Positions 1 through 1,199 of a DNA stretch of 1,199 nt are shown here, piece by piece. Under the pieces are notes generated by a model. It was given only the letters and a program-made list of their open reading frames with translations. It had not been told where the DNA came from and did no database searches. Each line of letters starts with the position of its first letter. The first letter of the stretch is position 1. The DNA lies in the sequence record OR846207.1. One strand, given 5' to 3'. A program made the position numbers and the translations under genes. The DNA comes from a phage.

Positions 1-1
1 A

Positions 2-151
2 AACCAAACCCTGCTTGACCAGCGCCTTTCAGATCTTGAACTAAAAGATTTGGATGCGCAAATATCAGAAGCAGAAGCCAAGCTATCCAGCTTAAACCAC
101 CGCAGGAAGCAAATCCGCAACAGAATTACTCAGGGACGCGGAAGCTGTTGA
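2..151 (+). CDS. 3' end of a CDS truncated by the window start; 49 C-terminal residues (…NQTLLDQRLSDLELKDLDAQISEAEAKLSSLNHRRKQIRNRITQGRGSC), stop TGA at 149-151; function unknown
   Basis: Only plus frame open across 1-151 (frames 1 and 3 hit stops at 16-18 and about 40). The minus strand has stops in all three frames here. Residues are charged with a heptad-like Leu pattern and a basic tail. No start codon in the window, so it is absent from the ORF track. Confidence 0.45.
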   Translation, partial: NQTLLDQRLSDLELKDLDAQISEAEAKLSSLNHRRKQIRNRITQGRGSC

Positions 152-160
152 AATCCTAGT

Positions 161-478
161 CTATTTTTTCTCAGAGCTCATATTGTAATAGGTGGTATAA
201 ATAGAGATTGATTTCTGACATGCTTCAAGAAATTGCTGCGGAGTCATCCCAAGCCTTGCTTGCTCTGTAGTAAGGAATCTCTGTAAGAATTCATTCCCAC
301 CCGGCATGTTTGTAGATTCTTGGAATATTGCCATTTGTTTGATTGCACCACACATACCAGCCATTTTCGAAGCTATCATGAGGCCTTGTATTTCATCAAA
401 ACTGCTATCGTCTGATTTTGTTTCTGCGTTAGCTATGCTCGAGAGACACAGGAGCAATAGGATAGCGATGCGTTTCAT
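161..478 (-). CDS. Small secreted/periplasmic protein of unknown function, 105 aa, with a Sec signal peptide; co-transcribed with the Mnt-like repressor
   Basis: N-terminus MKRIAILLLLCLSSIANA-ETK has a classic n-region (MKR), a hydrophobic core and an AXA (ANA) signal-peptidase I site. The mature part of about 87 aa has two Cys (GMCGA, EACQK) that could form a periplasmic disulfide. No lipobox is present (LLLC does not fit L-[AS]-[GA]-C). Its ATG (478-476) overlaps the upstream TGA (477-475) as ATGA. An SD-like AAGGGTG lies about 5-7 nt upstream inside the preceding gene. Confidence 0.75.
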   Translation of the reverse strand: MKRIAILLLLCLSSIANAETKSDDSSFDEIQGLMIASKMAGMCGAIKQMAIFQESTNMPGGNEFLQRFLTTEQARLGMTPQQFLEACQKSISIYTTYYNMSSEKK

Positions 479-723
479 TTTTCACCCTTACCATACATGG
501 TTTTCAGCGTCTCAAGCAGCGCCTCTTTGAATTTGTCAGCTTCTTGCTGAGCAAATGACTCAACTGACTTTGGCGACCTATCTTCATCAATCGCGGCTTG
601 CAAAATCATGACGATCTCGGAGTTAACAGAGCGACCATTTTTTGATGCTCTAACAGCAAGAGCCTCGCGTAAAGATTCAGGGATTCTTACCGTAGTTGGA
701 GAAATTGACACACCCTTTGCCAT
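475..723 (-). CDS. Mnt-like ribbon-helix-helix transcriptional repressor (Arc/MetJ superfamily), 82 aa
   Basis: N-terminal beta-strand and helix motif TVRIPESLREALAVRASKNGRSVNSEIVMILQAAI matches the RHH signature and closely parallels P22 Mnt as I recall it (FRMPMEVREKLKFRAEANGRSMNSELLQIVQDAL). A C-terminal extension ending ...LLETLKTMYGKGEK resembles the Mnt tetramerisation helix (...TLKDLYKKTT). Length is Mnt-like. SD-like AAAGGTG sits 4-6 nt upstream of the ATG at 723-721. Confidence 0.85.
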   Translation of the reverse strand: MAKGVSISPTTVRIPESLREALAVRASKNGRSVNSEIVMILQAAIDEDRSPKSVESFAQQEADKFKEALLETLKTMYGKGEK

Positions 724-743
724 AACACACCTTTGGTATTCAA

Positions 744-755
744 TTTGATATCAAA
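744..755. promoter_or_regulatory. Perfect 12-bp palindrome TTTGATATCAAA, candidate RHH operator; extends to an 18-bp near-palindrome CAaTTTGATATCAAAgTG (741-758)
   Basis: Read directly from the sequence. It lies 21 bp upstream of the Mnt-like start codon and 18 bp upstream of the -35 of the plus-strand promoter. RHH repressors bind short dyad-symmetric operators. A related half copy TTTGCTATC occurs at 791-799. Confidence 0.45.
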
Positions 756-763
756 GTGTATGC

Positions 764-774
764 AAAAAAATTTT
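764..774. promoter_or_regulatory. A7T4 tract (AAAAAAATTTT) abutting the -35 element, possible UP-element or intrinsic bend
   Basis: Read directly from the sequence. A/T tracts just upstream of a -35 hexamer are the usual position of UP elements. No functional evidence. Confidence 0.3.
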
Positions 775-801
775 GACTAGATATACTCACTTTGCTATCT
801 T
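773..801 (+). promoter_or_regulatory. Sigma70-like promoter for the Arc-like operon: -35 TTGACT (773-778), 17-bp spacer, extended -10 TGcTATCTT (793-801)
   Basis: TTGACT is 5/6 to TTGACA. Spacer is 17 bp. TATCTT is 4/6 to TATAAT and is preceded by a TG extended -10 motif. Predicted start near 808 gives a leader of about 30 nt to the ATG at 838. Confidence 0.5.
779..800. promoter_or_regulatory. Inverted repeat AGATA-N12-TATCT across the promoter spacer and -10, candidate second operator
   Basis: AGATA at 779-783 and its reverse complement TATCT at 796-800. The position between -35 and -10 is where I recall the Arc operator sitting in P22 Pant. Arms are short, so chance occurrence is plausible in AT-rich DNA. 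Confidence 0.25.
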
Positions 802-827
802 TTGTATTCGAAAAGAGTTGTTTATGT

Positions 828-833
828 GGAGGG
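828..833 (+). promoter_or_regulatory. Shine-Dalgarno GGAGGG for the Arc-like gene
   Basis: GGAGGG lies 4-5 nt upstream of the ATG at 838 and supports 838 over the TTG at 802 as the true start. Confidence 0.6.
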
Positions 834-837
834 TAAC

Positions 838-990
838 ATGGAGAAAGAAATAAGTAAGATTTTGGTAAGGATGCCGCAGTCGTTAAAGGATGCTATCGGT
901 AGCAGGGCAAAGGAAGAGTGTAGGTCGTTTAACTCAGAGGTTATCAAGCGCCTGATAGACAGCCTGAAGAGAGAGGGGGTTACGGTATGA
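838..990 (+). CDS. Arc-like ribbon-helix-helix repressor, 50 aa (MEKEISKILVRMPQSLKDAIGSRAKEECRSFNSEVIKRLIDSLKREGVTV)
   Basis: Aligns along its whole length with P22 Arc as I recall it (…FNLRWPREVLDLVRKVAEENGRSVNSEIYQRVMESFKKEGRIGA): R-[WM]-P beta-strand, RS-x-NSE helix-A cap, ESFKKEG versus DSLKREG at the C-terminus. Strong SD and ATG at 838. The ORF track's 62-aa version starts at an upstream TTG (802) with no RBS. Confidence 0.85.
   Translation: MEKEISKILVRMPQSLKDAIGSRAKEECRSFNSEVIKRLIDSLKREGVTV
971..979 (+). promoter_or_regulatory. Purine-rich Shine-Dalgarno (GAGAGGGGG) for the downstream membrane-protein gene, inside the 3' end of the Arc-like gene
   Basis: GAGG/GGGGG lies 7-10 nt upstream of the ATG at 987; that ATG overlaps the Arc-like TGA stop (ATGA at 987-990). 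Confidence 0.5.
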
Positions 991-1199
991 AGGTGTCATT
1001 GCTTGATCGTTCTTTACAATTTTTGTCTGGCGCAATCATTGTAGTTTGCTTGCTCGTGATTTTTACATCCTTAATCAATATGTATCAATCAGGGGAGCGA
1101 TTGACAAAGACGATAGAGGAAAAGAAATCAGTCTCAAATTACGAAGTATCACATGCACATAACGATTTAGTAGAAAGCCTTGACCGTATTAACAAGAGG
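987..1199 (+). CDS. 5' part of a CDS for a membrane-anchored protein of unknown function (71 aa in window, continues past the window end); one N-terminal TM helix
   Basis: ATG at 987 is in an open frame to 1199 with no stop: MKVSLLDRSLQFLSGAIIVVCLLVIFTSLINMYQSGERLTKTIEEKKSVSNYEVSHAHNDLVESLDRINKR. Residues 11-30 form a roughly 20-residue hydrophobic stretch, with K/R before it (positive-inside) and a charged hydrophilic region after. Absent from the ORF track only because it has no stop in the window. Confidence 0.7.
   Translation, partial: MKVSLLDRSLQFLSGAIIVVCLLVIFTSLINMYQSGERLTKTIEEKKSVSNYEVSHAHNDLVESLDRINKR

Follow-up and report, generated by a model that had tools for sequence, protein, structure and literature searches.

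The DNA analyzed here is a 1,199-nucleotide stretch of phage sequence record OR846207.1 (the window), which is 100% identical to Salmonella phage S.Kent 1-2-1 and part of which is matched in 245 of 5,426 complete E. coli genomes. Genes for two ribbon-helix-helix (RHH) repressors, one Mnt-like and one Arc-like, diverge from one short control region, and the stop codon of each overlaps the start of a small gene, here called its cargo. The features in the window and immediately beyond it are as follows (L001 is the source phage).

1..151, plus strand: 3' end of a convergent 61-aa open reading frame (ORF), phrog_7586 (PHROG match, 5.8e-44; L001 5966-6151)
161..478, minus strand: orf105, the mnt-side cargo, 105 aa (phrog_19844, 1e-69)
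475-478, minus strand: ATGA junction of mnt and orf105 (the plus strand reads TCAT)
475..723, minus strand: mnt-like gene for an 82-aa RHH repressor (Pfam Arc, 41.8 bits)
724..837, no strand: divergent control region of 114 nt between the mnt-like and arc-like genes
838..990, plus strand: arc-like gene for a 50-aa RHH repressor (Pfam Arc, 45.9 bits)
987-990, plus strand: ATGA junction of arc and orf89, read directly from the sequence
987..1199, plus strand: first 71 codons of orf89, the arc-side cargo (L001 6987-7256; phrog_27312, 3e-60)
L001 7251-7318, minus strand, outside the window: sar antisense RNA, full length (Rfam RF00262, 77.3 bits against a gathering score of 43)
L001 7255-7286, outside the window: sar terminator, at a P22-like position
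L001 7320-8243, outside the window, downstream of arc: ant antirepressor gene, 307 aa (phrog_245, anti-repressor Ant)

The Mnt-like protein is 36% identical to P22 Mnt across residues 11-79, matches PDB entry 1mnt (E = 2.4e-6) and aligns through its C-terminal helix with the C terminus of P22 Mnt. In E. coli prophages the Arc-like protein carries the annotation "Arc family DNA-binding protein"; it shares 39% identity with P22 Arc over 38 aa. The Pfam Arc match spans residues 8-47 of its 50, and by Pfam coverage there is no partner-binding tail beyond the RHH domain. The control region contains a Pant-like promoter (TTGACT at 773-778, a 17-nt spacer, and TGcTATCTT at 793-801) with a palindrome, AGATA-N12-TATCT (779-800), between its hexamers, the position of the Arc operator in P22. 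A 12-nt motif, CAC(C)TTTG(G/A/C)TAT, occurs three times, at 727-738, at 758-747 on the minus strand, and at 788-799. Its central bases co-vary with the repressor type across related loci, and we regard the three copies as candidate operators. The arc Shine-Dalgarno sequence is GGAGGG at 828-833; no Pmnt passed a consensus scan of the control region.

Sequence comparison identifies the window as the core of the P22-type secondary immunity (immI) module of a P22-like temperate phage. None of the immI parts is missing: mnt, arc, sar, and ant come in the same order as in P22, with Ant 57% identical to P22 Ant (E = 2e-120) and a Psar-like promoter at the P22 position. As in P22, the locus sits between a gene-16-like ejection protein gene and ant/tailspike, the gene-16 position upstream in L001 being occupied by a 718-aa gene. 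The original prediction that the locus could be read as an immI-type switch is thus borne out in components, order, and genomic position. The 61-aa ORF lies outside the switch, as a conserved flank on the distal side of the mnt cargo slot; segment 1..151 alone is 93-95% identical to other P22-like phages, prophages, and plasmids. GC composition is flat (~0.38-0.48 along the window) and uninformative as a sign of foreign origin.

Both repressor genes had been predicted to end in an ATGA stop/start overlap with the next gene, and both overlaps are present exactly as stated. On the arc side, TGA at 988-990 is the arc stop codon and ATG at 987-989 is the orf89 start codon; on the mnt side, TGA at 477-475 of the minus strand ends mnt and ATG at 478-476 opens orf105. 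A Shine-Dalgarno sequence, GAGGGGG at 973-979, lies inside arc, 7 nt upstream of the orf89 ATG, and the Shine-Dalgarno-like AAGGGTG at 489-483 (minus strand) lies inside mnt, 4 nt upstream of the orf105 ATG. The tetramer requires just one thing, a last sense codon ending in A, and the 4-nt overlap is the commonest single junction type in P22 (14 of 61 same-strand neighbor pairs, 23%). Two such junctions in one window are expected ~5% of the time if they are independent, so the ATGA pair is by itself unremarkable. What exceeds chance at these junctions is the long frames that both ATGs open: the chance of an open frame of 89 codons is (61/64)^89, or ~0.014, and that of one of 105 codons is (61/64)^105, or ~0.006.

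Translational coupling of each cargo to its repressor is plausible, given the overlap, the internal Shine-Dalgarno runs, which are conserved within the repressor codons of relatives, and the retention of the overlap across unrelated cargos. Sequestration of the cargo starts in mRNA structure is marginal or absent. In the arc/orf89 fold the Shine-Dalgarno sequence is paired, at a level that is not significant (z = -1.76, with 8 of 200 shuffles folding as well), and the mnt/orf105 fold is likewise not significant (z = -1.38). There is no promoter-like site ahead of orf105 or orf89, and neither cargo has its own terminator: none lies 3' of orf105 (structure z = 0.05), the last gene of its transcription unit, and orf89 ends in the sar terminator, which belongs to the other strand. 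The cargos appear to piggy-back on the repressor transcripts, unlike autonomous morons, which have their own promoter and terminator.

The N terminus of orf105 reads as a cleavable Sec signal peptide (MKR, a hydrophobic run, and ANA/ET), and its AlphaFold2 model is a three-helix bundle (helices 26-56, 61-76, and 80-103; pLDDT 72). Foldseek searches of the PDB and BFVD gave nothing better than E = 0.4; there was no family match in Pfam, NCBIfam, or PADLOC and no sequence match in the PDB. Homologs form only 11 clusters among 5.8 billion proteins, every one of them named hypothetical. The frame is under purifying selection, with a pN/pS of 0.28 against a 72%-identical homolog, which shows coding constraint.

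In the source phage orf89 is 89 aa in full and ends at the equivalent of window position 1256. Its sequence predicts one membrane helix (~residues 12-30) and a charged helical tail; it has no match in the PDB and a weak one to a bacteriocin-immunity PHROG (E = 0.003). Its pN/pS of 0.07-0.18 rests on at most 8 substitutions and is weak evidence. The orf89 TGA overlaps the foot of the sar terminator, and sar and ant come next. This cargo separates arc from ant, the gene that is actually regulated.

We compared 104 related loci, non-redundant by sequence and not phylogenetically independent. The arc-side slot holds one of nine small-ORF families or none, and the mnt-side slot one of about ten families or none; cargos at the same position are present, absent, or replaced among related phages, a moron-like trait. 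All 58 arc-side small ORFs start 4 nt before the arc stop, 45 with ATGA and 13 with GTGA, and all eight of the arc-side families examined end at one TGA overlapping the sar terminator stem. Among the 77 loci with an mnt-side cargo, 47 have a -4 overlap, 21 a -1 overlap (TAATG), and 4 a -8 overlap, and the remaining 5 have a gap of +1 to +12, so that every one of these cargos starts within 12 nt of the mnt stop. Where there is no mnt-side cargo (27 loci), a terminator hairpin lies over the stop codon in 19.

The same comparison shows the cargos changing partners. The window-type Mnt is paired with four cargo families or none, and orf89 follows arc genes of at least two types, that of the window and the P22-like one. 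The GGTGAAAAATGAAACG junction is found in 22 of the 24 loci with an orf105 homolog, behind four different Mnt types; distant orf105 homologs follow their RHH gene after a gap of 92-154 nt, which means that the overlap is not essential for the linkage. As to the proteins encoded, pN/pS is 0.10 for a 69-aa family and 0.18 for an mnt-side ClpP-like family, values that speak for real genes. One arc-side family matches the Pfam ClpX zinc-finger domain (42.6 bits against a cutoff of 27), others retain CxxC...CxxC motifs, and a 57-aa GTG-start arc-side family has a pN/pS of ~1.

Cargo is therefore exchanged while the junction is conserved. The overlap appears to belong to the slot and not to any particular repressor-cargo pair, because relatives place unrelated genes, or nothing, at the same junctions. 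The original prediction had read the overlaps as stoichiometric coupling of each repressor to its cargo. As a specific partnership this does not stand: the same repressor types carry many cargos or none, one cargo sits behind several repressor types, and across the 104 loci cargos reassort and are often absent instead of traveling with their repressors. Two things had been named as evidence against coupling, replacement of the cargo genes by unrelated ones and loss of the overlaps in homologous loci; we found the first and not the second, the overlaps being conserved. Nor does the proposed mirror-image architecture hold as a unit. The window's own cargo pairing occurs at 1 of 104 loci. A 4-nt overlap on both sides occurs at just 12 of 104, against ~26 expected if independent, in a sample biased by cargo-centered scans; our sole conclusion from this is that the overlaps on the two sides are not positively associated. 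The sides are also unlike, the mnt cargo being terminal in its unit and the arc cargo lying between arc and ant.

The other reading offered originally was of two back-to-back antitoxin-toxin-like pairs served by one control region, which we considered as type II pairs in which a toxin gene follows an RHH antitoxin gene. Operons of the CopG, ParD, and FitA kind do resemble the locus in having a small RHH gene first, a 4-nt overlap, and a second gene of ~100 aa. The RHH domains here are weakly similar in Pfam to the FitA-like, VapB, and HicB antitoxin RHH families, and relatives carry real toxin-antitoxin genes close by, L005 encoding a YafO toxin and L004 a Panacea-domain pair. Yet neither cargo matches a toxin or defense family in Pfam, NCBIfam, PADLOC, or the PDB; instead, a signal peptide is predicted for orf105 and a membrane anchor for orf89, as for exported and membrane proteins. 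The Arc-like protein is a bare 50-aa RHH domain without the partner-binding tail of an antitoxin, and the C terminus of the Mnt-like protein aligns with the C-terminal helix of P22 Mnt. Repressor and cargo are not inherited together, cargos reassorting freely and being frequently absent. Furthermore, sar and ant, which define immI, are present, and this too counts against toxin-antitoxin pairs. We have rejected that identity for the locus and regard it as hardly credible.

A more substantial alternative is that the overlaps carry no regulatory meaning and are ordinary phage gene packing and mosaic recombination seams, the cassettes swapping via homologous recombination in the conserved mnt and arc 3' ends and the distal flanks and the ATGA merely traveling with the flank. 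BLAST matches end precisely at 477 and 990, with further breaks within the mnt 3' end at 504 and 556; the last ~10 codons of arc and mnt co-vary with cargo presence; and the overlap is missing in the distant orf105 homologs. Because 23% of P22 same-strand junctions are already 4-nt overlaps, part of the conservation could reflect recombination in the conserved repressor 3' ends. What such recombination leaves unexplained is how every new family gained exact ends. All nine arc-side families share the -4 start, which has a probability of ~2e-6 at the 23% baseline, or ~6e-4 if the CxxC families are collapsed to give five independent families, and the stop at the sar hairpin is shared by all eight families examined. 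The Shine-Dalgarno runs are, moreover, kept inside repressor codons. We consider it unlikely that packing and seams account for the junctions.

The shared stop raises another alternative, that on the arc side an open frame matters more than the protein it encodes, the peptide being secondary or dispensable. Translation of the frame would bring ribosomes leaving arc up to the base of the sar/ant hairpin, a point to which the arc stop itself takes them in P22, and would prevent polarity on ant or set the access of sar to its target. A single TGA, located 2 nt inside the sar terminator stem, ends every cassette as well as the cassette-free arcs, and the P22 arc stop lies 6 nt ahead of the stem. 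The pN/pS of ~1 in the 57-aa family fits a dispensable peptide, and the arc-side families vary too little in sequence for a test of coding constraint. Against this, the ClpX zinc-finger match is significant and the CxxC...CxxC motifs are kept in other families; orf89 has a clear hydrophobic helix and charged tail, with more synonymous than nonsynonymous changes (5 versus 3); and the same circuit is kept in phages lacking any cassette. A role for the frame over the protein thus strikes us as very improbable. Somewhat less doubtful, and still unlikely, is the idea that the arc-sar gap is a dedicated, exactly fitted socket for unrelated small effectors in which a chain of translation tunes Ant synthesis. 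A load would start within the arc stop codon and stop within the foot of the sar hairpin, and would be produced during the brief burst of Pant activity that accompanies infection or induction; the candidate loads are free-standing ClpX zinc-finger look-alikes and, here, the predicted 89-aa membrane protein.

The reading that we prefer, with a probability of about 0.72, is that the locus is an immI switch in which each repressor gene carries an exchangeable passenger at an overlapping docking junction. Homology with P22 suggests that the prophage would make Mnt, which would hold Pant off. Infection or loss of Mnt would allow a brief firing of Pant, which would yield Arc and the antirepressor Ant; Arc would then turn Pant off again, and sar antisense RNA would also damp Ant translation. 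The last codons of each repressor gene would supply a ribosome-binding site and a start codon overlapping the stop codon, so that the same ribosomes could read the passenger, and each passenger would take on the expression timing of its carrier. The predicted exported protein encoded by orf105 would accordingly be made alongside Mnt in the lysogen, like other prophage-expressed accessory genes, and the predicted small membrane protein encoded by orf89, which lies between arc and ant, would appear during the short burst from Pant. Lysogens of Kapi1, a related phage, gave no detectable mnt transcripts (PMC12922286), and the P22 timing may therefore not transfer.

If docking at the repressor genes is the correct reading, accessory genes of P22-like prophages attach to both immunity repressors via conserved overlapping junctions, and the junctions predict the timing of each passenger: synthesis alongside Mnt in the lysogen on one side, and alongside Arc and Ant during the first minutes of infection on the other. 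Such predictions would permit a rational choice of candidates for lysogenic conversion, exclusion, or host takeover among "hypothetical proteins" that occur in hundreds of E. coli and Salmonella genomes. The analysis also removes a tempting misannotation, that of the immI RHH genes as antitoxins.

The immI module is a textbook circuit, and no new principle emerges from the window. P22 immI (mnt - Pmnt/Pant - arc - sar - ant) is built from the same four components, ordered and oriented alike, lies likewise between gene 16 and the tailspike gene of the late operon, and shares the Pant-like promoter with its inter-hexamer palindrome, sar, Psar, and the sar terminator. The repressors are just 36-39% identical, and the operators differ in sequence. 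In P22 no ORF separates arc from sar, a gap that an 89-aa ORF fills exactly in the window phage, and P22 orf59a lies 98 nt past mnt, whereas orf105 overlaps mnt by 4 nt.

Cargo turnover in these loci is the same phenomenon as the "ant moron" variability described for P22-like phages by Villafane et al. in 2008 (PMC2629481); the conserved overlapping junctions, the fitted arc-sar terminator cassette, and its families are not described in the available part of that paper. In the literature covered, which is thin for older papers and so gives weak evidence on this point, neither the arc-sar cassette nor ClpX-like proteins in immI are described. The exactly fitted arc-side cassette is the sole mildly new point.

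The annotated P22 mnt terminator lies past orf59a, which provides a precedent for a passenger co-transcribed with mnt. In the lambda cI-rexA-rexB operon, accessory genes lie downstream of the lysogeny repressor gene and are expressed from the prophage. P22 mnt-orf59a and lambda cI-rexA-rexB are thus like the present locus in having a passenger downstream of a lysogeny repressor; in the window phage, by contrast, the start of the passenger is embedded in the stop codon of the repressor, and the passenger differs among close relatives.

Both of the ATGA stop/start overlaps that the original prediction had placed at 475-478 on the minus strand and 987-990 on the plus strand are present in the sequence exactly there. 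The features of the window are as follows.

Features of the window
477-475, minus strand: TGA closing the 82-aa mnt gene (475-723); ATG at 478-476 opens the 105-aa ORF, orf105 (161-478)
489-483, minus strand: Shine-Dalgarno-like purine-rich run AAGGGTG, inside mnt, ahead of the orf105 start
988-990, plus strand: TGA closing the 50-aa arc gene (838-990); ATG at 987-989 opens orf89
973-979, plus strand: Shine-Dalgarno-like purine-rich run GAGGGGG, inside arc, ahead of the orf89 start
773-801: Pant-like promoter (TTGACT, 17 nt, TGcTATCTT), within the 114-nt intergenic region
1-151, plus strand: convergent 61-aa coiled-coil ORF (phrog_7586), at 5966-6151 in the source phage sequence, L001

orf89 runs out of the window; its complete 89-aa frame is at L001 6987-7256 of the source phage. 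The open frames behind both junctions are not due to chance, yet the overlaps themselves are ordinary. An ATGA tetramer is cheap, because its sole requirement is that the last sense codon end in A, and exact 4-nt overlaps are the commonest single junction class in P22 (14 of 61 same-strand neighbor gene pairs, 23%), so that two in one window are unremarkable. mRNA structure at the two junctions was not significant.

The window shares 100% identity with Salmonella phage S.Kent 1-2-1, and parts of it were matched in 245 of 5,426 complete Escherichia coli genomes, nearly always in chromosomal prophages. Its 82-aa and 50-aa proteins are both Arc-family ribbon-helix-helix (RHH) proteins: the former is 36% identical to P22 Mnt in an alignment that spans almost the whole length, including the C-terminal helix, and matched PDB entry 1mnt, and the latter is 39% identical to P22 Arc. 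Just outside the window lie an ant gene 57% identical to that of P22 and a full-length sar antisense RNA (Rfam score of 77.3 bits versus a threshold of 43), with the sar promoter and terminator beside it. In annotated P22-like (Lederbergvirus) relatives, the locus is flanked by the DNA-ejection protein genes on one side and by ant, tailspike, and integrase on the other. With all four components present in a P22-like position, the earlier reading of the locus as an immI-type switch stands, and the window with its flank is a complete immI secondary-immunity module, the Pmnt and operator assignments excepted. A palindrome (AGATA-N12-TATCT) between the Pant-like hexamers occupies the place of the Arc operator in P22. 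A 12-nt motif, CAC(C)TTTG(G/A/C)TAT, occurs in three copies (727-738, 747-758, and 788-799), two of them near the mnt start; in a related repressor type, CACnGTGATAT stands at these positions, and across related loci the central bases of the motif covary with repressor type.

We gathered related loci from searches started with Mnt, Arc, and each cargo (the small accessory gene attached to mnt or arc) and analyzed 104 nonredundant divergent mnt/arc pairs, which are not phylogenetically independent of one another; the arc side was readable in 103. A small ORF of 57 to 89 aa lies directly behind arc in 58 loci, and these ORFs, which fall into nine sequence families, without exception (58/58) start 4 nt before the arc stop (45 ATGA, 13 GTGA). 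In the 45 of 103 loci that lack one, arc runs up to the sar terminator, just as it does in P22. All eight families examined (L001 7254-7286, L002-L006, and other loci) have a common terminal TGA, which overlaps the first bases, or foot, of the sar terminator stem (AAA..TGAAGCCCC; ..AAAnnnTGAAGCCCC; window equivalent, 1254-1286), and their last codons form an A-run complementary to the sar U-tail. Because start and TGA are shared, the arc-sar insert is exactly one ORF, its ends embedded in the flanking functional elements with zero spare bases at either end.

One arc-side family exceeds the Pfam threshold for the ClpX zinc finger (free-standing zf-C4_ClpX-like proteins of 60 to 61 aa in L023, L035, L036-L038, and L069; 42.6 bits versus a cutoff of 27), and several others carry CxxC...CxxC motifs. 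Coding constraint was not demonstrable in the arc-side families, in which there is too little variation; in orf89, synonymous exceeds nonsynonymous change, on at most eight substitutions, and in the 57-aa family pN/pS is about 1. That ratio, like the common TGA at the terminator foot, is compatible with an arc-side frame that is mainly a translated spacer bringing ribosomes to the sar/ant hairpin, an explanation that the recognizable domains in other families contradict and that we regard as very improbable.

On the mnt side, 77 loci carry a cargo and 27 carry none; in 19 of these 27, the mnt stop codon is covered by an intrinsic-terminator hairpin.

Junctions of mnt-side cargos relative to the mnt stop codon
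-4 (ATGA): 47 loci; cargo of 105 aa (21), 69 aa (20), 121 aa (4), or 193 aa (2)
-1 (TAATG): 21 loci; ClpP-like protein of 178 aa
-8: 4 loci; family of 89 to 92 aa
+1 to +12: 5 loci; various cargos

The 178-aa ClpP-like protein (L002 3463-3999 and about 20 other loci) is the commonest mnt-side passenger in other P22-like phages and is under purifying selection (pN/pS of 0.18). With it and the ClpX zinc-finger-like passengers, there may be a link between immI and ClpXP proteolysis.

This is the comparison that the original prediction had proposed, to see whether repressor and cargo travel as pairs; the cargos are exchanged for unrelated genes. orf105 is found behind four different Mnt types (ATGA junction in 22 of 24 loci) and orf89 behind at least two Arc types (4-nt overlap in 13 of 13), and the Mnt type of the window is followed by four different cargos or by none. 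In 12 of the 104 loci the 4-nt overlap is present on both sides; the window's own cargo combination occurs in 1 of 104. Of the two observations expected to count against coupled pairs, we thus found replacement of the cargos but not loss of the overlaps. Replacement by unrelated genes excludes a specific stoichiometric partnership and likewise the suggestion of two antitoxin-toxin-like pairs, which is scarcely credible given that every testable feature contradicts it and that neither cargo resembles a toxin. Retention of the overlaps across unrelated cargos implies that the junction is a property of the slot.

orf105 is predicted to begin with a Sec signal peptide of typical form (MKR and a hydrophobic run ahead of ANA|ET), and its AlphaFold2 model is a small three-helix domain (pLDDT of 72). 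It had no match in Pfam, NCBIfam, PADLOC, PDB sequences, or fold libraries, and its homologues form only 11 clusters among 5.8 billion proteins, every one of them enterobacterial and named hypothetical. Its core is strongly conserved (pN/pS of 0.28 versus a 72%-identical homologue). In E. coli OkiPb01711, the homologue (L004, about 4400-4474, minus strand) is broken in an A-run just past the signal peptide, where GCAGAAACAAAATC of the window becomes GCAGAAAAAAAAATC, one base longer, and PGAP annotation is absent; possible explanations are a pseudogene, slippage, or a sequencing error. orf89 comprises a single hydrophobic helix and a charged helical tail, and its sole match is a PHROG of unknown function. 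In a different phage type, two distant orf105 homologues follow a 142-aa RHH gene after 92 to 154 nt; that gene diverges from an Arc-like gene with two Ant-like genes behind it. Their position behind the RHH gene implies an old linkage of orf105 with the Mnt side of immI-like switches, and the gaps imply that overlap is not obligatory. In L169 (139-2809), a different phage type, an immI-like switch has a 56-aa Arc-like gene and then two Ant-like genes, and opposite these a 142-aa RHH protein, a 92-nt gap, and a 102-aa orf105 homologue.

The overlaps might be no more than compaction with seams left by recombination: the breakpoints of BLAST matches coincide exactly with 477 and 990, with others at 504 and 556 within the 3' end of mnt, and such seams account for the spread of existing cassettes. 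We consider this unlikely, however, because it leaves unexplained the shared exact ends (the start in nine families and the TGA in the eight examined). Many of the E. coli prophage matches begin or end at 504 or 556, neither of which is a gene end. With breaks there, the last 9 to 27 mnt codons (the C-terminal helix) go along with whichever cargo or terminator lies downstream, and the N-terminal DNA-binding part of Mnt with the operators and arc, a pattern that points to recombination between Mnt's two domains.

In the model with the best support, mnt and arc each offer at the 3' end a docking site, made up of a ribosome-binding site and a start codon, through which interchangeable accessory genes would come under the immI program. 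Mnt-side passengers would be made in the lysogen, and Arc-side passengers in the short Pant burst, alongside Arc and Ant. Within this model, we infer coupling, expression timing, and cargo function; translational coupling of cargo to repressor is plausible. As a caveat, mnt was undetected in lysogen RNA-seq of the related phage Kapi1 (PMC12922286).

The phrog_7586 ORF adjoins orf105 across a 9-nt gap in which no terminator was detectable. Window 1-151 is the only segment kept, at 93 to 95% identity, by other P22-like phages and by four plasmid-collection records. The stretch from the ejection-protein gene to mnt is variable, with a Panacea-domain protein pair in L004 (3054-3921) and a YafO-family toxin in L005 (3511-3960), and looks like a hotspot for toxin-antitoxin/defense genes, apart from the repressor-coupled slots. 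In phage phiv205-1 (L002 6048-8369), annotated transposase genes separate the tail-fiber gene from a short "bifunctional tail protein" fragment, which suggests disruption of the tailspike region by an insertion sequence.

The immI circuit is classical. In the searchable literature, which leaves out most older subscription papers, we found no description of the conserved overlapping junctions or of the exactly fitted arc-sar cassette and its ClpX-zinc-finger-like occupants. Villafane et al. (2008; PMC2629481) described the "ant moron", which lies between genes 16 and 9, as hypervariable, and this hypervariability was noted again for phage L (PMC8022706). The arc-side socket, the place of the passenger between arc and sar, is the single lead meriting an experiment, and the interest overall is modest. 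P22 itself offers a precedent for expression of Mnt-side passengers, its annotated mnt terminator lying beyond orf59a, and the architecture described here is a new variant of the immI system.
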